This document shows positions 10,833-54,166 of a stretch of 54,166 nucleotides of DNA, one piece after another. Position 1 is the stretch's first letter; every line of letters starts with the position of its first letter. The notes below the pieces were generated by a model, which saw only the letters and a list, made by a program, of their open reading frames with translations, searched no databases and had not been told where the DNA came from. Source of the DNA: Psammoneis japonica (taxonomy: Eukaryota); contig QPGO01000327.1 in the NCBI GenBank assembly GCA_008632985.1, positions 1 through 54,166 on the forward strand, given 5' to 3'. Made by a program: the position numbers and the translations under genes.

Positions 10833-10991
10833 TTGTGATGAAATGCTTTGCGCTTCCATTGCGTGACATGAATGTGTGTGATGTTGGCAATGGAGATGTG
10901 ATGACGTGAGCTGTAGCACGTGACAGAGACGTTCAAAAAGACTCCACAAAAACAGGTGAATGAGTTCAAAAATGAAACTGAAATTTTGCTG

Positions 10992-11437: not shown

Positions 11438-11449
11438 CTACCATCATGG

Positions 11450-14400
11450 TATCTTGAATCTACGCAACCATTTCAATGACACCGTGTAAATGGGGCTTCT
11501 AGTTGAGAGGAAAATGGGGTTTGCCATTCCTTGACAGCGGGGGAAAAAAGAACAACGTGTGTGTTCACCTCCACATGTCACCACATTGTGCCTTTTCTGA
11601 AACTGAAGTCGTCCGCAATGGGGCACTCGCCCCATCTCGTACACATGTTTCGAAAGATGACAATTGGAGACTAACAAATGTGGTGCCCAGCAAAGGCTCT
11701 ACAAAATTTCGCACCGCCGTTGCAGTTTTATGACGCACACAGCACATCATTGTTTCCGACAACCTTGCCGGTGCGTTGTTTTAATTCTGGTGGACACTGT
11801 CTGACGCTCCATGTGATCACAGTGGAAATGGTGCCGTTTGAGTTGAGGAATGAAATGAAGTTAGTTGGCCTGGGTTCCACAGTTTTCCCTGAGACTAAAA
11901 GGTGCTTCGTAAGAGGTGTGCTCGTTTTGGTCATCCTTCTTTGACGTTGCGTCTGTTGCGGATGCCAGCAAATCGAGAGGCGTCTCTGGTTGCATCTCCC
12001 GACTGTTCCACCATCGATTGGATCCCCTTGGCGCAAAAGTGAAGACCTCCAGTCTGCTGTGAACAAATCTCGGAGTCTTGCCTTGTGCAGCTCTGCCGGG
12101 GCCAAATGGATCTTGAGCCAACAGCGCAATGACCTCTGGCTGTCGCGTCAAGAGTTTCTCCATTCTGGCGGTTCGCCACCTCGCCTTGCATGCAATGGCA
12201 AAAACCAGACTCTCCAATCTGATCTTGGAAGATGGAGAGGCAACACTCTCCCACACTCGTTTGGTCCCTTGTTCAGTTTGCATTTCCAAATGCACTGATG
12301 CCAAGTCACCCCGTCCCGACTCCCCTCAAGGATTGGCTCCCACCTGAAGTCATGCATGCATGCTTGCAAACTTTCCTTGGCAGCTGCAAAGCCGCAAGCT
12401 TTGCTGCCGTCTGCAGAGCAGATGGATTCTGGTTGACAGAGTCTTGATTTGATCTTGGAGCGGCAATGCTCTCAGAGGCCAAGCTTCTGCAAAGTTGTTC
12501 ATTGAGAACTTGCCATGGCCAGCTCGGCTCAATGTCGGAATCAAGGAAACGGCCAAACATGTCATCACCATTGAAGCCACAAGCACCCTGAAACCAATCA
12601 GCAGCGCATCTGGCAAAATGATTCATTTTACAAGGCTGTGTCTTTTGTGAGTTGCAGTTTTTGTCACTGCCCCAAATGAACATGCAGGCATTTTTGTCAC
12701 GATCATGTCCTTGTCGTTGATTGGAAAAAGAAGAGCCCTGAGAACATTTGGCATTCTCCCCTTGTTTTGATTGTCATTTCCTGCTCTCTCAGCAAATGCT
12801 GGGTTCTGCATTGAAATGTTTTGCACTTGTGTGACAGCAAAAAAAGAAGTCATCAATGGGACTTGTGCTTCAATTGTGGTGTCAAAGGCAACCTCAAGAA
12901 GATGGGTCTGGGCAAGAGTGGGGGGCAGGTGTCAAGAAGCTTTCATTTGACATGAGATCTCATCCTGCTTGCCTGCATCCAAGAAAAATGTGACACAACA
13001 CCAAAAATTTTGCGAGACAACTGTCATGATGGCGTTGGCGGTGATGAAGATTCACATTGTCCCTTGTGTGCAGCAACCACTCAAGATGTTGAGCTCACCC
13101 AGATCTGGGTGCGTCATGCTGCAGTCATTTGAGGGAAGCCAGCAATTGTTTGCACTGAGCTTGAGCTCTGCAGAGAAGTCTTTCATTTGTTTCATGATGC
13201 TGGCATTTGTGTGGCGGTGCATCGTGCAGTGCACGCACAGCCAGATGACATGTCAGGAGCCCAAGGTGCACTTGGACCAATGCTGTGCATGTGCTCCACC
13301 TCCTGCATTCACCCCAGCATTGGCAGCACCTGAAGCCACAAGAAACACAATTTCCTTTGTCATCAACAAGGATTTTGTCCCTTCCATGTCAACTCACAAT
13401 GCTTGGCTGCTCTTTTCTCACCTGCAGGATTCGAGAAATGCTTGGGTCAAATTTCAATGTGCCGCTGGGCTGCCATTTGGCAACTCTTTCAAAACAATTT
13501 TTGCCATGACAAGCAAGCTGGGTCAGAGTTCCAACATGTGTTTCAAGCAAGCATGTTGCATCAAAGGACCTGACCAAACTTGCAGTTGCTCCCATGCTGG
13601 AAATTTCCACGTGTGTGCCAGTGTGGGGGTTGCAAGAAGACAACACCAGCTTGTTGTTGCACCAGCTGCACAAACACCATCCTTGCAAGCATGCAGGCTG
13701 TGCTTTGGATGTTCGTTCTTGCATGGTTTTTGACCATGTTGCAACCAATTGTGAGCAGGCATTTGCCTTGATCCTTGATGCAAATGAGCCCCACATCAAG
13801 TGGCAGAATCCTTTGCAGGCCTCAAATCAACACAAAGAGTTGCAAAAAGAGCAAGGACAAAAAACCCGCTGGATGCCTGGCCCAAACACCTTCTCCAAAG
13901 AAGGCCTCAATTGTTGCAAAGCCCCCACCCTGAACATGAGACCATGTCAACATGCCCTTCTTCTTGCAAGTTCCCATTTGCAAGGCAGAGGCAGTGCCCA
14001 AAGAACTGCAATGCATTGCAGTTTTCTGGGCAATCAAAGCAGGTCTAGAGTGGGCATCATCACTGGGATTGTTTGGCTGGCATGGGCTCAAGTTGAAACA
14101 CTGCACTCCCACTGCACATCACCAGTTTCCCATGTGTTTTACATGCAGAACAGTGAGGGTCCTCTTGCAGCAAACAGCACTTCAAATCTGGCATCTCTGA
14201 ATGCTCCAGGCACTGGGCCATCAAAAAAGTGCTGCCCCCTGGCTGTCAACCTTGTCTGGGTCTTGATGCAAATGCCAAAGCAAACTTGCAAACAACCCAT
14301 CAACCACTGTCTGTCCCATCAATCTGATTTGCTTGGGGTGTCATTGATTTGCTCAGAATGGCTCACACCAAGGCATGCTCCATTTGTGAGTCAGCAAGTG

Positions 14401-15270
14401 ACCCACCCCTTGACCATTGGAAGAGAAGATCTGTGACATCACCCTTGCCAAAAGCCATGAAAAAGAGCATGCATTTAGAGACCAGGTGTCTTGTGTGCAG
14501 ATTCAAGGAAGCTTCATTTTGATTTCACAAGTGGCTGAAAAGTTTTTTGTGCAAGTGAGTGGGTGTGTCAGTCACTGACAATTTCCAGCACAGAAATGCA
14601 CACAGGGAATGTGACAAGTCTGGGTGTTTGGCAGGACCTTGTTTCCTTGAATTTACATGAACAGAGCAACATTGGTCAATTTGAGACACTTCAGCATGAA
14701 GTGAACATTGAAGCAGCAACCAACCAAAGCTCAAAAACAATGGCAAATGTTTTGTTTGCTCTGTTGTCTGCAGAAACAGAGATGAAATGATGCACAATGT
14801 GTTTCTTGCTCCACTCCACAGACAAGCATTTGTGAAATTTTGCTGGACTGGGGTTTGCCGTTCAGCCATCTTTTGCATGTGAGCGCAGCTGTCACATGCC
14901 ATGATCGTCACGCCCAAAACAACCCCTGCAGTTCAGCATTCACACTTTTGCCTCTGAGCACTTCTTGACATTTACCCATGATGTGCTGATTGCTTGCATG
15001 TGCACAAACTGCCTGCACCTCAGAGCAGCATCATGACTTCACCGCTGGCTGGGCAGCTTTTCTGTGCGCACCGTCTCTCGCTGGTGGTGCACTCGCCATG
15101 CTGGAAACTTTTCAGCACTGACACATCAGAGCAGCCAGAGCCACGTTCTCTGCTCCACTCTGCTGGAGAGGGCTGTGTCTGTTGTCAGTCCTCCAGGGCT
15201 TTTTATCCTTTGTGGCAGAGGAAAAGCACGAGCTTGGCGCTTGGCACATTTTGTGTGCACTCGGATCTCA
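11450..15270. repeat. CpG/TpA-depleted island, containing fragments that look like a decayed minus-strand coding sequence
   Basis: Same dinucleotide signature, strongest at about 12300-15250. Protein-like minus-strand fragments (11861-12304, 12306-12683, 12623-12856) are broken by stops and shifts. Family not recognised. Confidence 0.65.
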
Positions 15271-15492
15271 CTTTCGCGCGAGCGCCGCGGTGTCGCGCGA
15301 CTCGAAGATCTGCCGCTCTGCCCTCTCGCCCGCCTCGTCTCTCGCGTGTCGACGATGAACGATGACCGTTAAAGATCGCAATCGACAACAACATTACAGG
15401 AGACGAAGCGTTCTCAACATTCAGCAGACAACTGTATTCATTCTGTATCGTATCTCTACCGCACTTCTATCCTGAAGTAATCGTTCCACACA

Positions 15493-35980: not shown

Positions 35981-38900
35981 ATGAGAAGCGATAGTACCAA
36001 CAGCAACAACAGCAACAATAATGATCTCCACGCTGGCTTTGCGGGTTTCAAGTGGGAGGTTCATAAGTTTGGAGGGACAAGCGTTGCCTCGTCGGAATGT
36101 TTTGTGACTGTCGCCGGAATTATCGAAGAACATTTGGGACTAAGCAGCAACAACAATGGTGATCCTACTACATACAGTGATCTCAACTTGGCTGTAGTCG
36201 TCTCAGCCATGGGAGGAAAGCCAAAGGTCACCGACTTGCTGTTATCAACAGTGTCAGCAGCCGCAAGGCGTGATTCTGAAAACGTAAAAGAAGCAATGGA
36301 TCAAATCACGACAAAGCATCAGACGTGTATTGATGAGCTATTTCCTGATGACCAGGACGAACGCAAGAGGCTTCAGGACGCTATTCAATCTGATATGGGC
36401 GATATTGGAGATATCTTGAAAACAGTGTCGGTCATGAAGTGGCAAGCTACTCGGATTTCGGAGCTTGTTTCCGGTTACGGTGAATTGTGGTCATCGCAAA
36501 TTCTGGCAGCCTTGCTTAGACAACGAGCCAAGGCCCGATCAGACATGCAAGGAGTTAATGAAGATCCCTACAAACATCATGAGTTTTGTTTCTTGGACGC
36601 TCGGCGGATCATTATTATTGACGAAGAAGCCATTCAGAACGGACAGGTCTGCTGGGATATGTCGAAAGAGTGCATGGAAGAAGTTCACAGAAAGGAGGTT
36701 GCTCGTCTCGCGAATCAGTTTGGCAGTGAGGACGAGTATGTCTTGCACTATGTTGTTACTGGATACGTTGCATCGAACACCGATGGTGTTGCAACGACGC
36801 TACAGCGGTACGTTTATTCGTCTTGTCTCCAAGTTGTCTGGCTCTAGTCATATTTCTTGTTCTTCGATACTCATGCGCCGTCTTCTCACTTTTTCTATTC
36901 CTACAACTCCTTCAAAACATAAGAGATGGTTCTGACTATTCCGCTGCAATCATGGGTCGCTTGTTGCAATCCAACAAGATTACAATTTGGACCGATGTAA
37001 ATGGCGTCATGTCCGCTGATCCTCGCCGAGTATCCCAAGCATATGTCATACCTGAAGTGTCCTACAATGAAGCAATGGAGCTTGCTTACTTTGGTGCAAA
37101 AGTGATTCATCCAAAAACAATGCAACCGGCAATCTCCTCGCAACCGCGGCAAATCCCCATTTATATCCGAAACACGTTTTGCAGCAGTGACCCCGGCACT
37201 CGTATATTCACGTCTAGTACCACTCACACGGACCGTGACAAGTGTGTTTGTGGCTTTTCCTCTGTTGATCACATGGCGCTCATCAATGTCGAAGGTTCGG
37301 GATTGATTGGAGTCCCCGGTGTTGCGCGACGAATGTTTGCAACCCTGGAGAGCTTGGGTGTCAACATTGTCTTGATTTCCCAGGCTTCCTCTGAGCATTC
37401 TATTACCTTCGCCACCAATGAACAACAGGCGGAATTAGCCAAGACGGCAATTGAGGAAGAATTTCGCAAGGAGCTCGTGGCAGTACGTGGCTAAAATGCT
37501 TGATTAACTCAACAAGAAACGAATGACTCGAAAGCCTTTTCTCACTCAATTTCTCTTTTGCTTCTTTTTATATTGCAGAATCGAATCACAAGTGTTGACG
37601 TTCAGTCACCGTGTTCCATTATCGCTGCTGTAGGTGATGGCATGAGTCACACCTCTGGCGTATCTGGCCGCTTCTTTAGTGCGTTGGGCGATGCAAAAAT
37701 CAACGTGATTGCTATTTCTCAAGGGTGTTCGGAGAGAAATATTTCCGCTGTTGTCATGACAAACGAATCAACGCGTGCACTCCGAGCTGTCCATGCGGCG
37801 TTTCGATTGTCTCAGACGGTGGTGCGCGTGGGTGTTGTTGGTATGAATGATTTGGGTATATCTTTGTTGAAGCTTCTGGAGACACAGCGCGACAAACTGA
37901 GAAGCGCTTTTGATGTTGACTTGGAAGTCTGCGCTATTGTTGCAGAAGGCAAGAGTAAGGATTTGGTTGTTTTGAAGAATGATGGAGACGGCAATTCTGG
38001 CTCATTAACATATGGGGCATTCAAGAAAGTCACGCGCGATTCCGTGAGTTCGGATGAACCTGGCGAAACTGAGCAGGTTGATAAGGCGGAGGAAATGGCA
38101 ACTGTTGTAACTGGAGGATTGTCGTCCATGTTTAAGTGTCTTTTCAATGATGAGTGCCCTCACCACGTCGTTTTCGACTGCACTAACGACGAGCTTGTCA
38201 GCGACTTACATGCTGAATGGCTGAGGGAAGGAGTTCACGTGGTGACGGCAAACAACACGGGCTTATCTGGCTCGAGAGAACAACGTCTTTCCATTAGTGA
38301 AGCGGAAATAAAATACGGCAAGCTCTCGGCCCAGTATCTTCGTGAGGTCACGGTCGGTGGTGGGCTTCCTATTGTCAGCACCTTACGAAGCCTCTTGAAT
38401 TCGGGAGATAAGATTCGTCGTATCGACGGCATTTTGTCGGTCTCGCTTTCATACATTATGTTTCGAATATCACCTCCTCCTGAGATTTCTCGATGCAGCG
38501 AGTTCGACGAACTCTTTAGTCAAGGGGCATTTCGTGGAGACCTATCCACTTCGCCCGAGGCCCAGATTGGCCGCGCATGTCTGTTTAGCGAAGCGGTGAA
38601 GGAAGCGATATCTTTAGGGCTTATGGAAGAACACCCGGAGAAGGATCTCAGCAATGAGTACTCAGCTCGAGTGCTGATGGTTTTAGCAAAAGAACTAGGT
38701 CTCGACCAGTACCACGACACTCACCAGATTCAAGAATCTGCCGATCAATTTTTCGACGTCTCTCACAACGAGCTCTACACCGCTCAGCTCGACCAACGGA
38801 TCAAGGACCGCGTGGAAGATGCCGAGAGGCAAGGTTGCGTTCTTCGACACATTTCGAGCGTCGACGTCAAAGCAAAGTCCCTCAATATCAAGCTCGTTGC

Positions 38901-39295
38901 GGTTCCCAACAATCATGTACGCACTCTTCGTATCCTTGCTGTTCCTCCTCGTTTATGTTGAGTCTAACCCTTGATTCCTTTTCCCAGATATTTGCTGTAA
39001 CTCCTCCGAGTTGTGAATGCGTTAGATTCTTTACTCAGCGCCACAAACGTTACCCGTTGGTTATTCAGGTGAGCTCTTACATGTCTTTGTGACTTCTCTC
39101 ATCGTTGCCAAATTGTTCGAAGATTTCGCTGACATCACGTGTCCGTCATATTGTACCGTACAAAAGGGGCCTTCTGCTGGGGCCGATTCTACGGCAAGTG
39201 CTCTTCTTGCAGAGTTGTTGAACTTAATGAGGAGTAAGGTGGGACCCCGATCGGGAGCTTTGTCGCGAACTGCATCAAGCGCATACCTTAAGTGA
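35981..39295 (+). CDS. AK-HSDH: Bifunctional aspartate kinase-homoserine dehydrogenase; introns 36808-36923, 37483-37578, 38917-38987, 39069-39166
   Basis: VHKFGGTSV, VVVSAMGG, TTLQRDGSDYSA, IWTDVNGVMSADPR and AYFGAKVIHP; two ACT domains (ISQASSE, ISQGCSE); HVVTAN, EVTVGGGLPI and QGPSAGADSTAS. All four introns are GT-AG and frame-consistent. Confidence 0.95.
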
Positions 39296-39489
39296 TTAAA
39301 CTCCAACAATCTGCATATGGTAGTAAGCAGATTCGGAATAAACTTGTACAAAAGTCTATAGTTTTCATGGTCAAAACCTACTGCACAATTTTAATAATGG
39401 TCGCCACCTCGTTGCATCAATCCGTCAGAACCTTCCAATCATGAACCGCATAGATCCTCGTCGTCTCCTGGAATCATCACGGGAACCAC

Positions 39490-40374
39490 TTACTCCTGGC
39501 TACCACGGAGTTCACGGCGCCTGGTGCCACTGCAGGGAACCGCAACCAGGTCATCGGCATTGCTATCATATTCAACCGTGAAGCACGTGGCACCGTTAGA
39601 GTGCAAGTCCTTGTCAAAATAGACCTTTTCGCGTGGACTCCCCTCGAAATCAATGCCAACCAACGTAAGGTGGCCATTGAGGGCGATCCTGGCGTAGTAC
39701 TCGTTGAACTCGGGTCCTGGACCATCACCCCATTCCTCGTTGGCGGCCCACAAGACATCGCCTTCAGGACGTCCAGGGCTTTTGTCCTGGTACAGAACTA
39801 GATTACCGTCCACCGACTGCATAAGAAGAGAGGTCTTGGCATCGTCGTCACGAACATACTGTCCCTGTCGAAGTATTTCGCCACGTTGTAGTGGCTCGAA
39901 CTTTACATTCGACCAGATCTCGTCCTCGATACTGACAGAGTCACAATCAAAGGTACCCCTGAAGGTGTGAAGGACACAATCATCATCAATCGCCATGAAG
40001 TACTTGCCATCAATTGGGCCGCCACCCGAATGAGTTGCATAGTCGAGAGAATAACCACAATACGCCACAAAGTTTCCATTGGGCTGGAGAGAGTATGAAA
40101 GGCTTGGGCCACTGTAAGAAGCGCATAGGGACTTTCCGTTGGCGTCCCATCCACCCACGTTGAAGCCATTTTGAGTGGCCCAGTTTCCATCTCTTGGGTA
40201 ACGAACGGTGCACTTGCCATTGCGGAATTTGGGAAACTCGCCTTCGTCCATCTCGTCAATGGTTTCACCGGCGCGAAGCACCACATCCATGTTAGCGAGT
40301 TGCGCAGAGGCGTAACCTTTGCCAAGGAGTGTGGCCAGAAGAAGGGACACGGTCGTCTTGTTGAACATTGTCAT
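39490..40374 (-). CDS. Secreted protein with bulb-type (B) lectin-like domains
   Basis: Signal peptide; LQPNGNFVAY, LLMQSVDGNLVLYQ...VLWAAN and IALNGHLTL motifs. Confidence 0.7.
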   Translation of the reverse strand: MTMFNKTTVSLLLATLLGKGYASAQLANMDVVLRAGETIDEMDEGEFPKFRNGKCTVRYPRDGNWATQNGFNVGGWDANGKSLCASYSGPSLSYSLQPNGNFVAYCGYSLDYATHSGGGPIDGKYFMAIDDDCVLHTFRGTFDCDSVSIEDEIWSNVKFEPLQRGEILRQGQYVRDDDAKTSLLMQSVDGNLVLYQDKSPGRPEGDVLWAANEEWGDGPGPEFNEYYARIALNGHLTLVGIDFEGSPREKVYFDKDLHSNGATCFTVEYDSNADDLVAVPCSGTRRRELRGSQE

Positions 40375-40929
40375 GGTTTTTAGCTTTGCGTAATTCTTTT
40401 GAGTTTGTTGCTCTTTTGTTTTTTGTGCGACTACTTGTGCAGCATCCCATCACGACAGTGTTCTCATTCGTTCCCACTGTTCTCATCGCACATTGGAAAG
40501 AATGTTCTATGCGATCAAACAAGATCAAAATTTGTGATAGTCTATGAAAAGTATATTGCAACAAAGTATGTCTCGCATCACGTAAATCTGACTTGGGTTC
40601 TTGTCGCGGATCACGTTTCAGTACAAGATCGTCGTGGAATGTGCCATCCCTAACAAAATCGCGACTTTTGTGAGGTCACTTTAAGTATCGACGAGGGACT
40701 TAACGCACGGGTAACATCATCGCGTTTTTGATGCACATGAAGAAATCGCGAATGCAGTCGGACTGTTTTGACGGGAACACAACATGAAAAAGTGAGGGGG
40801 AGCCTCCGAAACGATCAAAAACGCGACCTCGTGTCAGTTTGTGGGACCAACGTACGATGGACGGGCATTTTAAAAGGTGGTCACTGCAGTTGACAAAACT
40901 TTAGGGCCCTACTTGGTGTCACTGTTGTG

Positions 40930-41570
40930 CAGGCTGAACTCGAAGGAAACGATGATGAAGCATACAATACTGTGAAAAAAATTGGTGATGTGCCAGGAAG
41001 AAAGTTTCACATGGTTACATGTCATCAGGCCATGCCTGCAAATGCAGTCTCCACACACTCTACAGGTGGTGTGTGCGAGCACTGCCACACGCGAAGAATG
41101 GTCGACGCATGGACTCACGATGGAGAGTGCTGCAGATGTGCCACATCTGAAAATCTATCACAAAGCAACAGCATTTGGGGCCTCTTCTGCAACTGTCTGA
41201 CCTCTCATCACCATCTTGCGAAATGGCACACACCTGGCCATTGGAAAAAAAAGGCAAAAAAGCAGAGGACAAGAAGGACCTCAAATGCCGTTGGCTGGAA
41301 AGCAGTGTCTGTGCAAAACAGGCTGCTGTTGCTTCCTTTGATGCTGATTGAGACCCCAAAAAGGGGGGGCGGCATGTTGGCTGCTTGCATTGAGTGTTTC
41401 CACCTCCCACAAGCAACTGCAAAATGTGGAGAGCTGGCGGGCATGTTTGACAAAGAAGAAACGAACTTTGCTGACCCCCTCCCCTCACAGTTGTTTTTCC
41501 ACAGTTGTGGATTGAAAGGCATGTCAGGGGCATTGTTAAGAAAGCTCACTGCAGGCAGCAGCTGGTGAGA
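40930..41570. repeat. Small CpG/TpA-depleted island
   Basis: Same TG/CA-rich signature; a few TA persist near the left edge. Confidence 0.6.
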
Positions 41571-41900
41571 GCCGTGCGGTTTTTAAAAATTGATCTGTTA
41601 ACGCAGGTCGATTGGCCAGTGTTGATTGGGCGTTGGTGCGCGGACGGACCTTTTCTTTCTCGCGTGCGTCAGGGATCATTGCAGAATGTGGTTCAGTCAT
41701 GGGTAAGACTCACCATGTAGAATGTCTACGACATGACACGACCACTTCTGTTTCCACGATTGAAACTTCCGTCGAAAAAGTCGCACCCAGAGAAAGGCGA
41801 GACGTCAACAACGGAGGGAAGTTTCAGGCGCCTCAATCTCGGCCCAGCACTTTCGTTATTGCACTCATCTCATTTTCTTCTTCTTCAAGCAGTTTGAAGC

Positions 41901-43743
41901 ATGGCGCCATTGCCCGAAACAAACCAAGACAATGGCGATGATAAGCCACCGGAAGACTTTTCCTCCATTCGTGTGCTGTCCAAGCCAGTTGAGCAACTCC
42001 ATCGAGCAGAAGATGAGGACTCGTCCGGATCTTGTTGGGTGGATCTAAAAAACTTTATACCTGGCGCACTTCCCCGAGTTACCACGATTGCAGTGACGAT
42101 TGGCATTGTGTGCGGTATCGTTGCCTTTATTTACTACTCCATGCTGTTCTTCTTACTGCGCTACCTATGGCATGATTTGCCTGAAATGCTTGTGGAAAAG
42201 TACAGTATTCCTGAATCATTTCATTGGTTATGGATTCCACTCGTGGGATTTACTTGTGCGGTCTGTGTAGGACTTTCGGTTCGTCTTTTAGGTGAACCGG
42301 GCGACTTGTCTTACACAGTCCAGTGCGTTCGTGACAAGGCTTTTATTGGAATGGATCACGTTATCCCGATGGTTGCGGCTAGTCAGTTTAGTATTTTGGG
42401 AGGAGGATCGTTGGGACCTGAAGCACCTCTTGTGGCCATTTGCGCGGCTTTTGGTGCATTCATTGGCCGAAATGTGTTTGGAACGGAACGCGTTGATCTA
42501 GTTAGGAAACACACCTTAATGGTAAGCTGTTCCTGGCTACGTACCTGTTCCTGATGTTTGTCCTCCTTCCATCTCGCATCACTCATCGTTCATCACCGTT
42601 GACCCCTGAAAGGGAATGGCTTGTGCTCTGGCTGCTTTTTTTGGAGTGCCACTTGGAGGATCACTCTTTGCACTCGAAATTAACAACCGTTTCGGCATCG
42701 AATATTACGAGCATACTATGCATGCCATCTTTAGTGGCACCGTATGTCTCGTTGTCTTTCGTGGGTTGGCCGGACTCGAAATAGGACCTGTATGGAAGCT
42801 CTCGGATACTATGCTAGGACCGTCCTCGCCATCCACGGTCGGAGTGGGTGCTCTCTTGGGACTTTGTGGAGCTGCCGTTGCTGCAATGTTTGTGTACTTT
42901 CACAAGTTTGTGATTAGCTTTTTTAGGAAGTGGAATCTCATGGATAATAAAAATGCTGTTCAGCGCGCTCTTGTTGGAGCCATTGGGGTTGTGTTGATTG
43001 GCGTGTTGGTGCCTCACACCCTGTTCTGGGGTGAATTGGAGATTCCAACTGTTGCGCTAGCCGCTCCAGCGAGCGAACTGCCCAACGTCTTTCCTACCGC
43101 AGGGCTGATTGGTTTTGAAATGAATTCCTTCTGGACTGCCATGATTGTTGGCGTTCTGAAAATGGTGGCAATTTCGTTTACAGTCGCAGGCGGCTATCGT
43201 GGGGGCTTTATCTTTCCTTTCTTTTTCGCGGGATCTGCCTTCGGAAAGGCACTCACATATGTGATACCCTCGCTTTCTCCAACCCTTGCAGCCCTTTGCT
43301 TTGCTGCTGGCATTAATGTCGCGATAACACGGACTGCACTTGCATCAACCCTAATTCTCTGTGGCCTGGCAGGAGAGATCAATGCCAACCCCCCCGTTCT
43401 TGCCGCGTCGCTGGTCTCTCTTTTTGCAACGGCATACATGGTGAGCATTGTCAATGATGCTTGTGAAATTTTATACTATGTCGTCAGCACCTTACATTTC
43501 TTTGAACCGCTTCCATTTACGCTTTTCAAGCCTTTTATCCGGTCGCAAGCTGGTCGAAACGACATTACAAGGAAAAGTCTCCAGCCAATTAAAGGGGGGC
43601 GTTGGATTCACGAACATTTCAGTAGCAGCCGCGAGTTTGCGAATTCAAGCAAACTTGCTTCAACCCCAGAACACGGTGATGTGGAAGCGACCGACCAATC
43701 TACGCCTCTTGTTGACTCAGAGAAAACGAGGTACACTTCATAG
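41901..43743 (+). CDS. CLC-family chloride channel/transporter; introns 42522-42612 and 43441-43530
   Basis: GGGSLGPEAPLV, AAFFGVPLGGSLFALE and GYRGGFIFP motifs, many TM helices, GT-AG introns. Confidence 0.9.
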
Positions 43744-44311
43744 TTGGGTACAAGTAGCGCGGCAGTCTGAAGGAGATTTGGATTTGTGAATGAGCGATTT
43801 TTGTTTGTAAATGTTATTCAATATGCTAAGGTTTTTCTACTATGCTCTTTGTCCAACCATAACGTGCATTCATTCAGGCTCATCGCCACCAGTATATCTA
43901 TCATAAGTTTCGAATACTAGCTACTAGAGCGGACGTCTAAGAGTGGACAAAAGAATTCTAGAGGAACCTTTCAGTAGCAGCTAAACAAATCTAAACAAAT
44001 GTAGTTACTTTTCCAAACAAGCAAATACAATAAACATTTTAATCCAGTCCTTTTGCCATCGTCAAGGCACACACCGCACGCTCGTTCGTTCGTGAGTCGT
44101 GTGCCAGAACCTCGCCGTCGATGACCTTTTCCATCAACAACTTGGTAAGCTTGTGGCCAACTAGCTGCAGCATCACTTTTAGGTGCGAGCTGATCGTCCC
44201 CCCGTTGTCAGCAACAAGTGTGGCAATAGGCCACATGAAAGAGTAAGGTCTTTCCGAAGACGAATCGCGACAACAGGGGTTGCTTTCTGGTTTATATCCA
44301 GTTTTATTCCA

Positions 44312-46392
44312 TCAAGCGTTTTCCGTTTCCTTTTCTCTTCTGCGTTCTAACCATTCTGTGTGGTCATACTCACAGGTTCCACCCATATTGATTGGAATCA
44401 TGCTTGGGAAAATGCCATAGCTCGAAAGCGCCTCCACAACCTTTGATTCGGCAACATCATGTACAACAATCCGGGAACGACTATTCTTGGGCTGCTGAGC
44501 AAGTCCAATTGGTTTCAAGAACTTTGACACTACGTACGGTAGGCGAAGCACGTGAGTCCCGCGAACAGGCACGGGAAGAACAGCTTCGTCGAGATTCCCC
44601 ATATTCCACTCAAGTTCTAGGTCGGTGTCAAAAAGGGACGCCCCTTTCATCCATACCAATCGCACAATACCCTCCGAAGCGCCTGGGTGCTGGGCGGCCA
44701 CCTCGCACATGTACCAATATGCCCGAGTCATGTTCTTTGTATTGTACCCTTTATAGTTATTCATGCGTGCGAAACATTGCATCAACTGTCGCCCTGAAGT
44801 ATCCAAGTAAGGAAGCAGTCGAAACAATCCTGCCTCAATAGCTTCTTTATCGTCCTTCACTGCCCCATCCAAAGCCATTGGCAATGTGAACTTGTCGGAT
44901 CCGAACCATTTTCGTCGTTCTTCCCAGTACTTGACGAAACGATGTGCTGCTTTCTCTGGGTCCATATCTTCTCGTTTCAAAAACAATTCCAGTCGCTGAT
45001 CATTTATTTCTACATCACGAGCCTTGGTACGGGCCTCCAGCCACGCTTTCTTTTCACTTGCTGGTATCGAATCCAGGTGACGCTTTAATTCTACCAACAA
45101 ATACGAGACATCACTCGTACTGTTGCAACGTCTTATTCGCTTTGTGGGAGGGGGCGTCGATATGCGTAACTTTCCAAATAGATCTTGTGTGGCGGTGCGT
45201 TGCTCTTCTTCTGAAATGGCAAAATCATCTGCTTTTTGATGATTTGTAGAAGCTTCCGTCAAGGACGTAAACAAGAATTCAGCAGCCGCAATATCCTGAC
45301 TCGTCAGGGATACGTAGGATTCAGGAGGAATGACATGGGCTCTACTCTCTTGCTGTTGCCGATCATCGGGTTCATTATTGTTAAAAGTGGCATCGTGAAG
45401 CCGCTGCATTTCGTCAAGGCTGCGAAAAATTTTGGATAGGCTCCCACCTCCAAAACGACGATTAGACATCTCTCTCTGCAGCTCTTGCGTTGCATCAGGA
45501 TTGTCTTGAGGAATAATGTTTTGAACTGTTGCCTCCTCCTCTATCACCTGCGGCGGTGCTTCCTTCTGTTTCGAATCTCTTGGAGGAACAGTGTGCATAA
45601 TGGGGCGTTGACTAAGTGGGTCTTGCGGTGGCTTCTTTTCCTGTAAAAGTGAACTTGGCGCGTTTAACCTTCCTTTCGCAGCTTCCTCGCGGAATGGAGA
45701 AGGTTTTCGAATCTCCCGAGGCGACTCTGAAGACACCGTGTCTCGTTTTATCGAGCTTGTACGTGGCAGTGCGTGGTAAACACTCATAGACCCCATTGAT
45801 GAAGGCTGAACCACAAGGTGGCTTGCGGGTGCCGGGTGAAAAGACCTTGCCTCCATAGGTGGAGCCACGGGAGCAGTTGCTGCAAAGGGTTGAGAGAGAA
45901 GACCGTGAATCTGCGCTAAATGATTCAGCGCCGGTGAAATGTTTTGTTCCACTGCCATTGTCGAAAACGGAAACGCTTTCGGTTGCGGAGGCTGCGGAGG
46001 CATCACGACTCCAAGCTGATGTAATATATTATAGGAACGATACCCGTAGTTGCTGGCAGTCTCTGCAGCAGAAAATGAGGGTGATTCTTGCACAGTGTCA
46101 GCATCCAAGTTTCTCTTTTCTCTCAGCGCCTGCTTTACTTTCTTGAGTGCTTTTCGGAACTGACTTGTTCCCATTCGCCTGTTTTCTCGGATGCTTCCAA
46201 GAATCTTCCCTTTCGTCTGTAAATTGCACCTAGAATCAGCTGTGCGACGTCGTTCTTTTGCTTTCTGTTGCTCGCATCCTGGTACGCATGCTTGTAGCGT
46301 CGGACGAGCCTTAGAAATTCGCAGTTGCCAAGGTGCTCTCGTGAGCCTTTTCCCCTTCCAAACAATACATCATTGTCACTTGGTTCCAACAT
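44312..46392 (-). CDS. DUF6824-type N-terminal domain plus low-complexity linker plus CRAL-TRIO-like domain; apparent 1-nt deletion at 46151-46154
   Basis: NDVLFGRG...HLGNCEF...KGRFLE...WEQVS joins KALKKVKQALRE if one A is added. C-terminal FLKREDMDPEKAAHRFVKYWEERRKWFG, DTSGRQL and YGIFPSMIPINMGG. Confidence 0.8.
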
Positions 46393-47025
46393 GAAAATCA
46401 AGATGTTCAGAACACAGTAAGGTTACGAAATACGAACTTGCCTAAGCGTTTTTGTCATGGCGCGGTGAGAACATCTATTTTTGAGGGCAAGTTGAAGTTG
46501 TCAAGGGCGGGGGGAGTGCAGAGAGTGGGAGCGCGCACACCCACGGTGCAACCTGCACTTCATGACAATCGATGTGTCGATTGTCGATTGCTCTTTGTCG
46601 CTCGCCGACTCTGCTTCCTCTCGTGTCTGATGCGCTCTTAGTCGAGCACTCTGGTTGGTTGTGGAATGGGCCACGAGCACCAGACCTCGAGCTAGAGGGC
46701 TCCCATTCCGGGGACCAGGAATTGGAGCTCTGGCTGGAGAGCCGCAAAGGGTGGGCTGTGCAGGCTGCAAACGAAACTCGCTCTCTCGTCTCATCAACGT
46801 GCAGTGCAACATTGATGAAGAAAAAGAGTGAGTTTGCTGTGACTCAAATGGTGCTTGTAGACTCATGCACTGCTTCTGCGATGTGAGCAGCGTCGCAAAG
46901 CAGATCGCAAAAACAACCCCCCACTCACACAGGGGGGAGGCACAGACCACTGCATCTCATTGGTCTCCGATCTGCGCCAAAAAGTTACAATGGGGCTCCC
47001 AACATGGGGGTGCAAAGTTGCAAGC

Positions 47026-47492
47026 AGTGCAGTTGGATTGGAGCTCTTTGTGGTGCAAAACGACACAAAATGATGTGGTGCAGCGCAAAAAGTGCTGCGG
47101 CAGAGTGTGCCTGGAAGCACCAGCAGGTTGATTTTTTTAGAGCAAGGTGATTTACCTCCCACACCAGAGCTGCTCCAGCAAACAGTGCAGTTGGAGCTGA
47201 GCTCTTTGTGGTGCAACATGACAAAATGGTGTGGTGTGGTGCAAAAAGTGCTGCAGCAGAGTGTGCCTGGAAGCACCAGCAGGTTGATTTTTTTAGAGCA
47301 AGGTGATTTGCCTCCCATGCCAGAGCTGCTCCAGCAAACAGTGCAGCAGGAGTTGAGCTCTTTGTGGTGCAAAATGACAAAATGATGTGGTGCAGCGCAA
47401 AAAGTGCTGCGGCAGAGTGTGTCTGGAAGCACCAGCAGGTTTTTTTTTTTTAGAGCAAGGTAATTTACCTCCCACGCCAGAGCTGCTCCAGC
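47026..47492 (+). repeat. 156-bp tandem repeat (about 3 copies) inside a CpG/TpA-depleted island (about 46780-47492)
   Basis: ctggaagcaccagcagg starts at 47111, 47267 and 47423 (period 156). Confidence 0.92.
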
Positions 47493-47767
47493 GAATCCAT
47501 TCAGATGGCCTTTGGTGCCCCTCTAATAGAGGACCTTAGCTTCTACTCTCTAGCTCTCTACTCTAGAGAGTCGTCGTCGAGTGAACCGCAGAGCTCGAAT
47601 AAGCTGCACAAGTCACCGAGTCATTTGACTGAATCGCGCGAATCATCACGCTCGATCGACCCGACGGACCGACACGTTGAAATTGTTGTTGGTTGTTAGC
47701 AGTACGATACCGGTAGTATGGCAATGAGGTGTCAAACTGAAAGTCCTCCCTCTTCATCAACTCCACC

Positions 47768-49116
47768 ATGAACGGCGATGCAAAGCAAGAAACAGAGGCG
47801 GAGAACAACATCAATGGTGCAAAGGCACCTTTTTATAGAATTGTGTTGACGGGTGGTCCGTGTGGAGGAAAGACAACCGCGTTGGAACGTGTTTCGTCGT
47901 ATCTCCGAGAGCGTGGCTTTGAAGTGATTACGTGTCCCGAAGTGTTTACGATTCTAGCGTCAAACGGACTGTCTCTCGATTATTTTTCAACAGACGGCAT
48001 GGATTTAATCATTCAAGGTACAGTCATTTCGGTTCAAACATCCATGGAAGACGGGTTGGAACGAGTCCTCCGAGCACGTGGCAAACCAGCCGTGTTGCTT
48101 TGTGATCGAGGAATCATGGATGGGTCGGCGTACATGGACCCCGCCAAGTGGAATCAGTTGTTGGAATCCCGCAATTTAGATGTGACTGATATTCGCGAGG
48201 GCCGATACAACGCTGTGTACCACCTGTTGACCGCAGCCAATGGAGCACGTGAGTTTTACACGCTAGACAATAACGCAGCAAGAAGTGAGACTGCGGATGA
48301 AGCTGTTGAAGTGGATCTCAAGACACAAAAAGCATGGGTGGGCCACCCCAAACTGACTGTCATTGATAATTCCACAGCTTTTGAACCTAAACTACAAAAG
48401 TTGGTGAATGCTGTGAGCAAACTGGTTGGGCTACCTTCCAATTTGAGACGCGTCACGACCAAGTTCTTGTTGCGCTGCAAACCTGACGTTGAAGCGCTGG
48501 TTCAACAACACGGTGTTGACATTCATGTGTTTGAAGTTGAAAAGGTGTACTTGGTGCATGTCGATGCACAAGTAGATGATTCTTCACCCTTCAAGGAGGA
48601 GTATAGCTTTGTACGGAAACGAACCATTATTAGAAGCGATGGCACTCGTGGTGGATCCGTGTATGGTTTCACCGCGGCTCAAGTGACCAAAGACGACAAG
48701 GAAATTGAGGTGAAGCGTATCATCAGCAGTCGCGAGTATCTCGCAGCTGTCAAAACACGCGACTTGAAGCGGCACATTATTCGGCAGCGACGAATCTGCT
48801 TCTTGTACCATTTGCAGAGCTTTTCCATTCATGTAAGTGTTTCGAGAATCAATCAATCGATTAATCTACCTGTTGCAAGTGCATATAATCGCACTCGTGG
48901 TTGCTTTCTCAAACTCACTCCTTAATAATATGATTTATGACTCGGAAACAGGAATATGAAGAGCCTGTATCTGACATTTGCATTCTCCACGCCCAAGTCG
49001 AATCGTCGGGTGACGAGCAAGCCAAAGTACATTTGCCCCCATTCTTGGACGTGGACAGACGCTTACATAAAGAAGACGAAGCTTACAGTGCCTATAGCAT
49101 CTCAATGATTAAATAG
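47768..49116 (+). CDS. P-loop AAA_28 (Ttd14-like) protein with a C-terminal CYTH-like domain; intron 48833-48951
   Basis: RIVLTGGPCGGKTT, LLCDRGIMDGSAY, YTLDNNAARSE and KAWVGHP; terminal exon contains LPPFLDV...AYSAYSIS. Confidence 0.88.
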
Positions 49117-49168
49117 AGAGAGTTATGGCTCTAGAGAGTACAATCAATTAAATATCAAAGGATAGTCT

Positions 49169-49315
49169 TACACAACACAAACTCTTCATGAGTCTCTCAC
49201 TCTAGCTTCTACTTTTTCTCGACGTCTTTCTCGACAAATACACAACACAGATTCTTCATGAGTCTCTGCCTACTTAAGTAGCTTCTACTTTTTCTCGACG
49301 TCTTTCTCGACAAAT
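49169..49315. repeat. Tandem duplication of about 70-76 bp covering the stop codon and 3' end of the 49285-50145 gene
   Basis: tacacaacaca...tcttcatgagtctct...tagcttctactttttctcgacgtctttctcgacaaat occurs twice (49169-49239 and 49239-49315). Confidence 0.88.
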
Positions 49316-50145
49316 TCAACGTCGATAATGTCATCCTTATTCATTGGGTTTCTTCCTAACCTTTCCGTGTAGCCACCTCCAGTATCACCACCTTTGTCCG
49401 AAACATCAATGTTGTAGCTTCTGCCAGCCACATGTAACACAAGCCGAGTAATTCCTTGCTCGTTTGCAGTCATGGTGGCAGACCCGTTTTGGAAATACCC
49501 CTGAACGGGAAAGGATGCTTGGATTTGTGATGTCATTTTACCATTAATGTTTGTAGTGCTGGAGCTTTGTGAAAAGGGTGACTGCACAACAATGGGTTCA
49601 CCCAGAGCTTTTGTTGCAGCAGTGTCGCGCACAATAAAGGTTCGGGCATCGTCCAGTAATTCTGACATTTGGCGTTGCTGTTCGCCCACGGATTCAGCGA
49701 GTGTCGAAGCCATACCAGATACCAGTGGAGCAATCATGGAACCCATCATTCTGACTGGAAGTGGGGCATCTTTGAGAATTTCTTTCAATCCGCCTTTGAT
49801 TTCGTTCTTCATTTGCTTTCTGGCGAGTTCTGCTTTTTTCTCTTCTTTGGATTTAAACAAATTCTTTGGAAGAAGACTTTTGACTGTGTCTGCTGCCTTT
49901 CCTAGGAAGCTATCATTACCCTTCCTGGAAGCATAGAGACGGAGCGTCTGATGCTGAGATCTTGACAACGTCGCTCCTCCTAGCGGTTGTAATGTCGGGT
50001 GTGCAATCACGCGGTTGCTTTGGGGCAAAGTAGGAGCGAACGCGTATGAGGATGTCAACGCTGCCGCAGCTGTCCAACAAAACAAGCGTCTAGATAAGCG
50101 TCGTGGGGAGGACAACGCTTTAGATAAGGACGGAGATCGCATCAT
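49285..50145 (-). CDS. Predicted plastid-targeted protein of unknown function
   Basis: 286-aa ORF with a hydrophobic stretch ending SSYA-FAP (ASAFAP-like), an S/T/R-rich transit-like segment, PFSQSSSTTNING and a terminal DIIDVEFVEK. Confidence 0.75.
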   Translation of the reverse strand: MMRSPSLSKALSSPRRLSRRLFCWTAAAALTSSYAFAPTLPQSNRVIAHPTLQPLGGATLSRSQHQTLRLYASRKGNDSFLGKAADTVKSLLPKNLFKSKEEKKAELARKQMKNEIKGGLKEILKDAPLPVRMMGSMIAPLVSGMASTLAESVGEQQRQMSELLDDARTFIVRDTAATKALGEPIVVQSPFSQSSSTTNINGKMTSQIQASFPVQGYFQNGSATMTANEQGITRLVLHVAGRSYNIDVSDKGGDTGGGYTERLGRNPMNKDDIIDVEFVEKDVEKK

Positions 50146-50449
50146 TTGAACAATTGAAAAGCTTCGAAAATAGGAAGATCGATGGAGGCAAATGGAGGGT
50201 TGATGGCGAATGGCGAATCATCTGGAATGAATCATCATCATCCTCGCGGGACGACACGAGATTTTTCCGCCGCGTGTCGTCCGTCGCCCGTCTGTGCGTG
50301 GTGTCCATCACTCAGCTTTCAAGCGCCCCCCGTGAGATTTTTGGATTTGGATGTTGAAGTGCAAAAAGGACAACTGAGAAGAAGAAAAGGAAAGAGAGAG
50401 GGAATGGAAGGAAGGAGAATAAAGAGAGAAGGGAGCCTCACCAGGTTGT

Positions 50450-52400
50450 GATTCGGGTTCAAGGACCCAGTCAAAACCAACACACCACCTTGCAAGCAGC
50501 ACCAGTGTGTGCTGGTTGGCAGAGCAAGAGCACAAGGTGACAACTTGCAAGCGTTGAAATGTGCATTTGGTTCAGCGGCATCATTGTGCTTTGTGGCACG
50601 CTGCTTCTGATGCAATCCTTTGATTTCTGGGAGATTCTTGTGGGATTTTCCTTCTGGGGGCATGGCAGGAAAATTGACAAAAAAGCCAACAACAGAGCTG
50701 CAAGAGTCATGCAGTGTGATGAACAATTTCGATTCTCTGCAACATGCATTGTTGATTAACTCAAGTGCTCCATGGTCCAACATCCCGACCATTTTCCATT
50801 GCAACTTCTTCACAACAGTGCTTTCGCTCTGACAAAAACTCAACAAGCGCTGTCATTCCATCCGCAAGAAGCGCAGCTGTGTTTTCAGCTGCCACTCACA
50901 AAGCCAAAAGAACCTGAGCCACAAAAAAAATGAAAAGCCAGCCCATGACTGAGTCTGCAGGGGATGCAGCAAACAGACCAAATTTGTGCATGACAGCCAG
51001 AAACCTTTTGGACATTTGAGTCATCCATGTGAGATCTTTTTGTTTGTTCTGTTCCACCAGATGTGTCACACTGTCTCCCAGCACTCAGGAGGAAGCCTCT
51101 TTTCCCAACTTCCATTGTCATCCATTGGCATTCTGGCAGGTCACAGCCTTGCATGATTGTCTGATTTTCCTGCACTTTGATTCAACTTCTCATTTTTGAT
51201 GTGTGTCGAGTGTTTTGTGTGAGCTGGTCAAGCCCCCCTGAACTGCTGGGAAAGTGCTGGCACCTTCTGAGGGGCAGTGGTGTTTGCATTGGCAATTTTG
51301 AAAAGCAACACCATGCACCAAAGAGCCCCAAGAACAGCCCCACTGCCTCTTTTTGCTGAAACTTGCTTGAAATTTTAGAAATGCTCTCTTTGCTTCCAAC
51401 AGCTCCCACATGCACTTGAATGCCTTTTGTTTGGATTCTTTGATCTTTGATCTTGGCAACTCCTTTGTCAACCCAGCCCTGGTTTTTGTGTCTGTCTGGG
51501 TGGCAGTGTGTCATGACAGCAGCTTGAGGCTCTTGGCACTGGGAACAACATGGAAGACAATCTCTTTTCCAGCAAATGTGTGTTTGTCCTGAGGAAGTTC
51601 AGAGTGCATTCCTCAAGATTTTGTTGTGATCTCACATGTTTCCACAGAACAACAACAGCTGCTGCTGAAAGACTTCTTGCACATCCTGGCACAGCTTCCA
51701 GTTGGGAAACTCAGTGGGCCATTTTCTGGTGGCCAAATTTGGTGCATGAGCTCTGCAGCTGGTGCACCAAGCAAGACCCCCCCCCCCCCCCCAACACAGC
51801 ATTTGTGGCTGACATCAAAGCAAGGGCCGCTTGCTTTTGCAGCACTGCCGTGCCTCTTCACACTCAAAATGTCAAAAAATCCAGCACTTGAGCATGTCAT
51901 CTCATGGCTGGTGTGTGCCCACCTGAAGCAGCAAGCTGTTGTTGTCAAGCTTTTCCTGTGAAAGTGTCAGCTTTCTTGAGGAGTGATGAGCACACACACA
52001 AGTTGCAGCCTCTCAACTGCATGTGATGGTTCTGTTGTTTTGCGCCACCCACAAGCTCGCAAGAAAAGCCAGGCACACAAGTTGTTTTGCCATGAGATTG
52101 AACATGACACTGCTGGAGGTTGGTGTGCAGCTGTTTGGTGCTTGCACTGCAACAACATTTGAGGTCCTCCAGGTTTAGCACCCGCCTCTAATGCTGGAGC
52201 GTGCTCATGCTGTTTGTTGGAGTGGCGGTGCTTTTGTGAGGGTGCTTCCAGGGCGTCTGTGGCCGTTTTCAGAAACACTTCTCATGACTTGACAATGGCT
52301 CCAGTGCCACGTGCTGGGCCAGTGTGTGTGGTGCGGGATGGTTCTGCACTGCAGTCTCTCTAGAGAGAGAGCAGAGAGCAGACTTGAGTGGGAATGATGC
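50450..52400. repeat. CpG/TpA-depleted island
   Basis: Same signature over about 2 kb; only spurious Cys/His-rich ORFs. Confidence 0.72.
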
Positions 52401-53005
52401 TGATTTTTGTTGTTTGTTCGGATGTGCCGGCAGACGACTCACAAGGATGCCCACGCCGCCACGCACGCACAGCCAGACCTTTGTTCGTCCACCCGGGACA
52501 GGTTTACGTTGGGGGAAATATTGGTTATCCTAAAGCTCTTATAGGAATATGACTTTTTTGAAAAAACATTTCATCTATATTTTTGATAGAGACAAAAATT
52601 TTCTAAGATCATATTATTAGTAATCATAGATGTTAATAACTTATAATTAAAATTAATCTCGAATTATTATATTTATCTTGAACGGAAAGGTTTTTGGCGG
52701 CTATTCGGCAAGCTCATAAACTCATGAGCAGACGGCGACGGCGGGATGCTCATCTGATGCTGTACGATGACGATTGAAGGAGGGAACGACGAATCGGAAG
52801 TAGAGGAGGTTGATTGTTATTTGGTGAGTGGGCTCAGTGTGATCTGAGCGCCACAAAAGCGACGACCTGGCCTCTGCTTTCCCAAGAAATGCAGCAGCGT
52901 ACGACCACCAGCAACAACTCATCGATCGAAAGCCTGGTGCACAACTCGTCTCCCCTGACGGAGGAGAAAGCACCAGGAGAGGGGCCCAACGAAGCGACGG
53001 TTGTT

Positions 53006-54166
53006 GTTGCCTTGGAGAGGAAGAAAGTTCGAAGCGTGAACTCAGGGCCTCCACCAAATGGCAAGCTGTCAAACATTGATGAAGAGTCATTCCGAAAGCC
53101 AGACGAGCCATGTGTCTTGGATGAAGTGTTGAAGCAACCGTTCACCAGGGGTGTTTCGGGGCGCCAAAGAGCAAGCGATGCCGACAAGAGTGATGCTTCG
53201 GTGGAGGCGAGCGGGGGAGAGAGCGAGGAAGACGAATCTCGCAATGCATCTCGGCCGAAACGGGATGTTGCCTTGGAGAGGAAGAAAGATCGCAGCGTGA
53301 ACTCAGAGCCTCCATCAAACAGTAGCTGTCAAACATTGATGAAGATCATTCCAACAGCCAGACGAGCCATGTGTCTTGGATGAATGTGTTGAAGCGAGCA
53401 TTCACCAGGGTGTTTCCAGGAGCCAAGGAGCAAGCGGTGCTGACAAGAGTGACACTCCGGCAGAGGCGAGCGGAGGAGAGAGCGAGGAAGATGAATCTCG
53501 CAGTGCATCTCAGCCGAAACGAAATGGTGAATTCGACCGCCTTCATGACATGGAGGGACACGAAATTGTGATTGATCCGGATTCGAAAGAAGCTCCGCCA
53601 AAGGCAGAACGGGGAATCCCCCTGTTTCGAGCAAGGTCGTCTTTTAGGTGGAAGAAAAAGAAGGCGTCCGACACGATTGTGGGCGATGACAGCTCGAAAT
53701 CAAGTGGCAAAGTGGACTCCGTGGAAGTCAATCAGGGGCTCGAGATTGAGCGCAGCAATGAATCGCTCCAGATGTCACAGAAAAAACGATCAAAGATGCG
53801 TTCTTTTGGATCTAAGTCGCTGGCAAGACTTGGATCGCGCAGAGCGCCGTCTTTGGACAATCCAGCGAATCCAAGCCATGTTGAACCCGAAGATCACTCT
53901 TCCCACCAGAAAACCGCAGCCATTGCGACGTCCAAAGACAAGCCATGTGTCTTGGATGAAGGTGTTGAAGCGAGCGTTCACCAAGGCATTTCTGGGAGCC
54001 AAGGACCAAGCGACACTGACAAGAGTGATGCTCCGGTAGAGGCGAGCGGAGGACAGAGCGAGGAAGACGAATCTCGTAATACATCTCAGCCGAAACGGGA
54101 TGGTGAATTCGACCGCCTTGCTGATGCGGCGGGACACGAAATTGTGATCGATTCGGATTCGCAACA
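53006..54166 (+). repeat. Three diverged copies of a unit of about 260-320 bp within a decaying acidic/basic low-complexity coding-like sequence
   Basis: agccatgtgtcttggatgaa..tgttgaagc.a.c.ttcacca.gg...gacaagagtga...aggcgagcgg...agcgaggaaga.gaatctcg recurs near 53106, 53364 and 53941. The frames are broken. Confidence 0.85.

Follow-up and report, generated by a model that had tools for sequence, protein, structure and literature searches.

The array and its surroundings

The DNA analysed here comes from a diatom, Psammoneis japonica (contig QPGO01000327.1), and we call the whole stretch, 54,166 nucleotides long, the window. One gene of this genome has named homologues in Cylindrotheca, Amphora, Seminavis, Phaeodactylum and Nitzschia. 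A tandem array (47020-47495) sits in the window between two divergent genes, 40 bp past a dispersed repeat of about 400 bp (46582-46981) that abuts it. The gene on one side (44312-46369, minus strand) has a weak CRAL/TRIO match (E 1.6e-4, under the cut-off), and the gene on the other (47741-48925, plus strand) has an AAA_28 ATPase domain (E 3e-20); both are normal in TA and CG. Between 46477 and 47451, TA was scarce. Rfam gave no match at E<=1 over 46300-47800, and Pfam gave none for the submitted open reading frames over the array and the islands described below; we read these frames as by-products of lost TAA and TAG. The dispersed repeat was found in about 40 other places among the matches listed, with 69-86% identity. 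Its window copy is lightly hit, with 3 TA and 21 CG, and the same sites in 26 other copies read TG or CA, on both strands. This repeat has a short palindrome at its start and is tandem in some copies (L122, L123 and L126); no long terminal inverted repeats were seen in it.

Several islands of the window were depleted in TA and CG. In the large island at 3001-10900, the observed/expected ratio (o/e) between 3001 and 7000 was 0.03-0.04 for TA and 0.04-0.11 for CG, and the remainder is TA-poor with CG present. A second island (11900-15200) had ratios of 0-0.07 and 0.08-0.37 at 12001-15000, and a third (50170-52360) has a saturated core at 51001-52000 with 1 TA and 3 CG. A repeat block at 52900-54040 is TA-poor and CG-normal (0.06 and 0.92), and is an early stage of the process that we describe here. 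Taken over the window, the saturated islands had a TA o/e of 0.02-0.07 and a CG o/e of 0.04-0.2, against 0.5 and 1.0 in genes. An element with 33-bp terminal inverted repeats at 10991-11438, absent from the allelic contig C142, is TA-rich between TA-poor blocks, as expected of a young insertion not yet hit.

Contig C213 is allelic to the window over 24948-54166. Of the TA sites compared between alleles, 17 of 38 were polymorphic where the DNA is TA-poor but has CG, and 66 of 1141 in the background. In saturated DNA, 7319 sites contained 11 TG/CA doublets, against 2 in 28104. The classes in these counts were set by the window's own TA content and are hence biased. The alleles show 182 differences over 38000-44630 (5899 bp compared) and 14 over 44631-54166 (about 9200 bp); heterozygosity may have been lost recently in the latter part, or phasing may account for the drop. 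At 40871-41604 and 9239-9269, the allelic contigs hold about 10.6 kb and 5.6 kb, respectively, of other, partly TA-poor sequence, and 40956-41411 is a high-depth repeat in sequencing run X1. One-base indels relative to the X1 contigs, at 46150, 47440, 50390, 50645, 51350 and 51388, are likely consensus errors. The contigs of another run, X2, look spliced and cover neither the array nor the islands, from which we draw no conclusion.

Three tandem copies and their alleles

The array consists of three copies of about 156 bp, at 47020-47177 (158 bp), 47178-47333 and 47334-47495. Three 37-nt segments, at 47146, 47302 and 47459, form their 3' ends; they were present as given in a preliminary description of this DNA, and their four variable sites are all TA or CG in copy 3, the copy at the edge. 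Of eight such sites, copy 1 kept 5 intact in the window (3 CG and 2 TA) and 6 on C213 (4 and 2), the middle copy, which is the most mutated, kept 1 (0 and 1) and 2 (1 and 1), and copy 3 kept 7 (4 and 3) and 8 (4 and 4). The edge copy had been called the least mutated, and its 7 of 8 is indeed the highest count; it differed from copy 2 (p=0.01), the lowest, but not significantly from copy 1 (p=0.57). A search of the genome for further copies, in which only the best candidates were scored, found the allelic contig C213 alone, and an alignment of all units comprises six sequences, three copies in two alleles.

The C213 allele added a fifth variable position to the 37-nt segment, a non-CpG C>T at 47155. 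All five variable columns of this segment, which was picked post hoc, fell within its 8 TA/CG columns (p=1.3e-4). Over the whole unit, a hand tally placed 8 of 21 variable columns in the 16 TA/CG columns out of 158, where 2.1 were expected, with a p of 1.7e-4 that is partly circular because a site was counted if TA or CG was present in any copy.

The CG at 47475-47476 had been proposed to be ancestral, and the alleles confirmed this: CG is ancestral and its loss recent, because three states occur there (CG in copy 3, CA in copy 1 of the window, TG in copy 2) and the C213 allele of copy 1 has CG. The CG of copy 1 (47162-47163, aligned to 47475-47476) was found in contigs of run X1 as well. The site thus records two independent hits on CG, one still polymorphic. 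At 47466-47467, copies 1 and 3 have TA and copy 2 has TG, which polarises the change as TA>TG, in the favoured TAC context. At 47461-47462, copy 3 has TA and copies 1 and 2 have TG in both alleles, and at 47492-47493 copy 3 ends in CG and both internal junctions have CA, at most one event. Since copies 1 and 2 share their state by descent, each of these two differences is a single unpolarised event. The claim that TA was ancestral is therefore supported at 47466-47467, whereas the direction at 47461-47462 is not polarised; there the context would favour an outcome other than TG. The difference at 47492-47493 lies at a repeat junction and may be a junction effect, and a microhomology reading also requires one change.

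Other positions complete the comparison. The TA at 47451-47452, in the context TTAG of the most resistant class (YTAR), was retained in all six copies and alleles. Outside the 37-nt segment, copy 1 retained a CG at 47061-47062 that copies 2 and 3 have lost, a TT/CA doublet at 47347-47348 is private to copy 3, and a T>C in copy 2 falls in AAC, the secondary context. The first part of copy 2 groups with copy 3 and its last part with copy 1, a mosaic that we infer to be an outcome of unequal crossing-over. In the C213 allele of copy 2, 6 bp are inserted at window position 47284 and form, together with the neighbouring bases, a perfect 8-bp inverted repeat, which fits a template switch at a near-palindrome. 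Allelic SNPs were concentrated in the array, whose 476 bp contain 5, compared with 2 in the 6682 bp of flank (p=2e-5). Two of the five are CpG losses and three are non-CpG C>T changes, one of which (47378) creates a TA; the non-CpG C>T changes are explained neither by TA loss nor by CpG decay, and they speak against the simple two-process picture of the preliminary description.

The array probably arose when unique DNA beside the dispersed repeat was triplicated in place, and its patch is small and lightly hit. It is a weak witness of the process, with only two of its four sites polarised and its middle copy the most mutated. It adds little beyond a CpG component that is still polymorphic. One could suppose that ordinary CpG decay, raised C>T and exchange between copies made the array what it is, with TA incidental and the edge effect noise. 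The single polarised TA>TG, the three non-CpG C>T among five allelic SNPs, the similar counts of copies 1 and 3, and the descent shared by copies 1 and 2 in the quoted segment all agree with this account. However, TA is scarce over 46477-47451, and at TA sites of other copies of the adjoining repeat, the window copy reads TG or CA in 15 of 30 comparisons. Moreover, the invariant TA of the array is YTAR, the resistant context, its polarised hit is TAC, the favoured one, and the AAC change of copy 2 and the doublet of copy 3 are both of types known from the Copia patch described below. We consider this account, which concerns the array only, somewhat unlikely.

TA and CG loss in Copia families

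We next compared Copia elements of the genome, taking the 30 best of 150 scored reverse-transcriptase matches and comparing the 26 that form families. At 89 TA sites common to one copy (L041) and an outgroup (L043), a third copy (L067) had TG at 38, CA at 35, TA at 13 and another state at 3, and among 105 CG sites common to the same pair, 17 had become TG or CA; the remaining A>G/T>C changes of this trio amounted to 1.3-2.1%. Sites with TA, TG and CA among the copies numbered 7, 16, 29 and 8 in families A-D, and the occurrence of all three at one site indicates that TA is ancestral in these families. Columns belonging to the TA/TG/CA/CG sets made up 206/229, 211/241 and 118/135 of the variable columns in families B-D (87-90%). 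In family B, CG became TG or CA at 48 of 1240 sites, on both strands, against 5 of 5341 for other C>T. In the reverse-transcriptase matches with internal stops (12), these were TGA only in 11 and TAG in 1, the pattern expected if TAA and TAG do not survive.

The two losses proceed at different paces. TA was lost 27 and 10 times faster than CG in the two copies measured. Among 881 tiles, taken from 443 kb of stretches around repeat matches and so not giving shares of the genome, 62 were TA-low and CG-normal and none was TA-normal and CG-low, which shows that TA is lost before CG. The idea that the two mutation types act together was borne out to the extent that they share the same patches genome-wide; their pace is unequal, with TA loss faster and earlier. 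A genome-wide process almost certainly converts TA, quickly, and CG, slowly, to TG/CA in discrete repeat patches. In its first part, TpA becomes TpG or CpA on genomic DNA, on both strands, with a preference for TAC and TAT and to near saturation; in its second part, CpG becomes TpG or CpA within these patches, at a pace 10-27 times slower. The preliminary description made a real observation and read too much into it locally, while being right in substance at genome level.

Sequence context and strand

The context of the changes was read in the patch of one Copia copy on contig C388. A>G changes were found at 151 of 333 TA strand-sites against 23 of 1691 other A sites, the latter made up of 16/412 at NAC and 7/1279 at other non-TA sites. 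Among TA sites, the order was TAC (71/116), TAT (33/74), TAG (27/81) and TAA (20/62), and the strand reading TAY beat the strand reading TAR by 26:4 and 21:7. The survivors mirror this order. RTAY was left at 0.11 per kb in TA-low tiles against 12.28 in normal tiles, and YTAR at 1.47 against 7.05; 54% of the surviving TA in TA-low tiles were YTAR and 4% RTAY, compared with 18% and 31% in normal tiles. Over 12 copies, the outcomes TG and CA were 121:131 at symmetric sites, with no pooled strand bias, although one copy leaned 27:13 by strand (p=0.04). Runs of same-strand hits were absent (64 vs 68.9 expected, and 74 vs 71.5 in C388). Because there were neither strand runs nor a pooled strand bias, we saw no sign of processive action on a single strand.

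An A>G at TAY is a T>C at RTA, and therefore the modified base is not readable from the sequence. The chemistry of TA loss is probably adenine deamination, judging from its context. TadA-derived editors are most efficient at TAY (PMC10879117), with UACG as favoured substrate motif (PMC8052359), and the preference seen in the diatom matches that of TadA-type deaminases. Alternatively, thymine could be the modified base in the same patches, if the T of TpA were oxidised or alkylated (to 5-hydroxymethyluracil, 5-formyluracil or similar) and mispaired with G to give T>C. The spectrum would be formally equivalent, and in dinoflagellate DNA 5-hydroxymethyluracil replaces T at TpA. However, the TAY/NAC hierarchy fits a known adenine deaminase family, and the genome gave no Tet_JBP (PF12851) candidate in a search whose control was silent too, so that absence is not shown. 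No report linking hydroxymethyluracil at TpA with mutation of repeats was found in the literature searched. We regard a thymine lesion as unlikely.

A boundary inside one Copia copy

The C388 element (8910-15480) was compared as a whole with three sister copies, to which it is about 98% identical along its entire length. TA had become TG or CA at 148 of 166 sites in 11001-15480 (4.5 kb) and at 1 of 91 in 8910-11000, and CG was lost at 21 of 266 and 1 of 93 sites in the same two parts. Conversion in successive 500-bp bins was 0/28, 9/16, 12/16, 20/21 and 18/18, a ramp of about 1 kb. The hit part includes the 5' LTR; the two LTRs, one hit and the other not, differ by 23 changes and are 93.1% alike, against 99.7-100% in all three sisters. 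When the flank was compared with a contig without the element, the ~400 bp nearest the element had lost 4 of 8 TA, and the 900 bp beyond them 0 of 22. The boundary, the unequal LTRs and the spill into the flank indicate that the process acts on genomic DNA after insertion, led by position and with ramped edges. The weakening at the island boundary that had been proposed from the array is thus seen in this Copia copy, with its ~1-kb ramp and ~400-bp spill, but not in the array, which is mutated most at its centre (n=3). ADAR-type RNA editing fixed by reverse transcription would affect the sense strand only and leave the two LTRs alike after insertion. It is disfavoured: both strands are hit, the LTRs differ by their 23 changes, and the flank is hit.

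Targeting is very probably by position and not by duplication. We also asked whether pairing of repeat copies could trigger the mutations, as in a reverse form of repeat-induced point mutation (RIP). The patches do lie on repeats, copies within a family are hit independently, and the array is rich in allelic SNPs compared with its flank. But a boundary inside an element that matches its sisters throughout, one LTR hit and the other spared, and hits that extend into the flank are not what pairing predicts. The same can be said of the young family A, in which 10 of 11 copies had 0-2 TA hits in the region compared and one, the C388 element, had 17. Homology as the trigger is very unlikely on these grounds.

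Co-location of TA loss and CG loss

The two losses could also be joined through repair. A polymerase of the Pol eta type, acting at T:G mismatches that arise from 5-methylcytosine, would give A>G at WA as a by-product of CpG methylation, and the co-location of CG and TA loss would follow. Pol eta prefers WA, hits AA to the same order as TA, and produces transversions as well. In the C388 patch, however, AA was nearly untouched (9/493, against 151/333 for TA) and transversions were 4 of 4187, and TA loss outpaces CG loss by the 10-27 times given above. Copia loci of other organisms bear on this point too. Metagenomes gave 218 confirmed Copia loci; of the best 80, many are strongly CG-poor, and none had a 500-bp tile with a TA o/e below 0.15, against 17 of 30 of the genome's own loci. 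This comparison is a weak one, since Tyr codons were required by 4 of the 6 patterns used for the search and young copies are over-represented in assemblies, and we take it as a weak sign that the TA-loss process is not general among organisms. Several of these metagenome relatives (L175-L254) are strongly CG-depleted (o/e 0.1-0.3) with normal TA. Error-prone repair of this kind is highly improbable.

We give next to no credence to an assembly or base-calling artefact, or to selection against TA: the window has small indel errors relative to run X1, and its alleles at 47155 and 47163 are absent from the X1 contigs, which keep one allele, but the outcomes are almost only TG/CA, depend on the 3' context and vary from copy to copy and from allele to allele. 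In addition, an X1 contig agrees with 49286-51789 at every letter, so that the islands are not a consensus artefact; as X1 may come from the source sample itself, this tests the assembly and not the biology.

Proposed mechanism and known systems

Taken together, we favour adenine deamination confined to silenced patches, joined by decay of methylated CpG, as the full explanation, with a probability of roughly 0.6. The patches would be silenced, CpG-methylated chromatin domains, seeded at repeats and not by pairing of copies. A deaminase of the TadA/ADAT2 type would convert the A of TpA to inosine in transiently single-stranded DNA, where it would be fixed as G, and CpG loss would be spontaneous deamination of 5-methylcytosine. 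The effect would be to scramble transposon reading frames, through Tyr codons and TA-containing signals, that is, genome defence. As a tentative extension, which we hold at rather less than even odds, this lineage might possess a natural DNA adenine base editor, an enzyme of the TadA/ADAT type steered to silenced chromatin seeded at transposon promoters, as part of an old defence shared across SAR. Such an editor would erase TpA within a few kb long before the LTRs would otherwise diverge.

The nearest known case is Bigelowiella natans, in which integrated NCLDV and virophage DNA undergoes TpA>TpG/CpA hypermutation, with ADAT2 as the proposed enzyme (Mettrop et al., bioRxiv 10.64898/2026.01.13.699255). 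According to this preprint, the rate per generation is about 1000-fold higher and the activity is found in only some lines; 230 of 231 changes were A/T>G/C, and the TpA o/e of the NCLDV region was 0.45 (10.64898/2026.01.13.699255). Both organisms have TpA>TpG/CpA changes on both strands, regionally, leaving clusters poor in TpA and rich in CpA and TpG. In the diatom, too, changes occur almost only at TpA, TG and CA are balanced (38:35), and the hits are confined (148/166 vs 1/91). The targets differ, being Copia elements, small dispersed repeats and tandem arrays here and integrated viral DNA in B. natans, and the diatom reaches saturation (o/e 0.02-0.06), unlike the NCLDV region reported there (0.45). 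The diatom also shows CpG decay in the same patch, a 3' rule (TAY, then NAC) and a boundary inside an element; the main text of the preprint mentions neither CpG, diatoms nor trinucleotides, nor such a rule or boundary, and its supplements may hold contexts. Rates were measured in B. natans, and the patchiness from copy to copy in the diatom is only an analogue of line-specific activity.

RIP acts before meiosis and depends on RID/DIM-2. The diatom process and RIP of ascomycetes (PMC2621366) both ruin repeats by dense, context-specific transitions in a defence-like manner, but RIP changes C:G to T:A mostly at CpA and so creates TpA, whereas the diatom process removes it. RIP is set off by duplication and spans the duplicated length; in the diatom, a boundary lies inside a multi-copy element, sisters are spared and the flank receives spill. 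In Phaeodactylum, CG methylation of transposons depends on DNMT5 (PMC9998398). Decay of methylated CpG resembles the diatom process in that CG becomes TG or CA on both strands of repeats, and C5 methyltransferases are present in the genome; it covers the slow part only, and Copia loci of other organisms show CG loss without TA loss.

In the literature searched, which left out most subscription papers, no report of this process in diatoms was found. Our results take an observation made in one preprint beyond Rhizaria and viruses, to a diatom and its transposons. If the process is shared with Bigelowiella, it would be an ancient means of genome defence across SAR, a counterpart of RIP with the chemistry reversed. 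The saturated footprints, the readable motif (TAC>TAT>TAR>>NAC) and the sharp patch edges make enzyme and targeting testable. On the practical side, insertions dated by their LTRs come out too old (93% vs 100% for sister insertions), the similarity between repeats fades fast, and the loss of TAA and TAG leaves false open reading frames.

Candidate enzymes

To our knowledge, large-scale deamination of adenine in genomic DNA is not established for any natural enzyme, and the adenine base editors in use are products of laboratory evolution. The genome carries a gene that we take, from its motifs, to be ADAT2-like, a TadA-like gene that is conserved in other diatoms, two A_deamin genes and 27 matches to PF00145 (C5 methyltransferase). 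Natural TadA/ADAT2 enzymes act on tRNA, whereas the diatom proteins are candidates for action on DNA. Both the ADAT2-like and the TadA-like gene resemble ordinary editors of tRNA, no enzyme of the genome is tied to the process, and the presence of ADAT2 is near universal. No expanded or obviously chromatin-fused deaminase was found among 5 MafB19-deam and 4 A_deamin matches, in a search that was made at exon level and covered these two families. In one open frame (L095, contig C79), a zinc deaminase domain and a 2OG-Fe(II) oxygenase appear to be fused. Several C5 DNA methyltransferase genes (L105-L107, contigs C301 and C297) lie in TA-stripped DNA, with 16-23 TA in 3.5 kb and CG near normal; they occur in several copies, some with stops, and are probably mobile-element cargo hit by the process.
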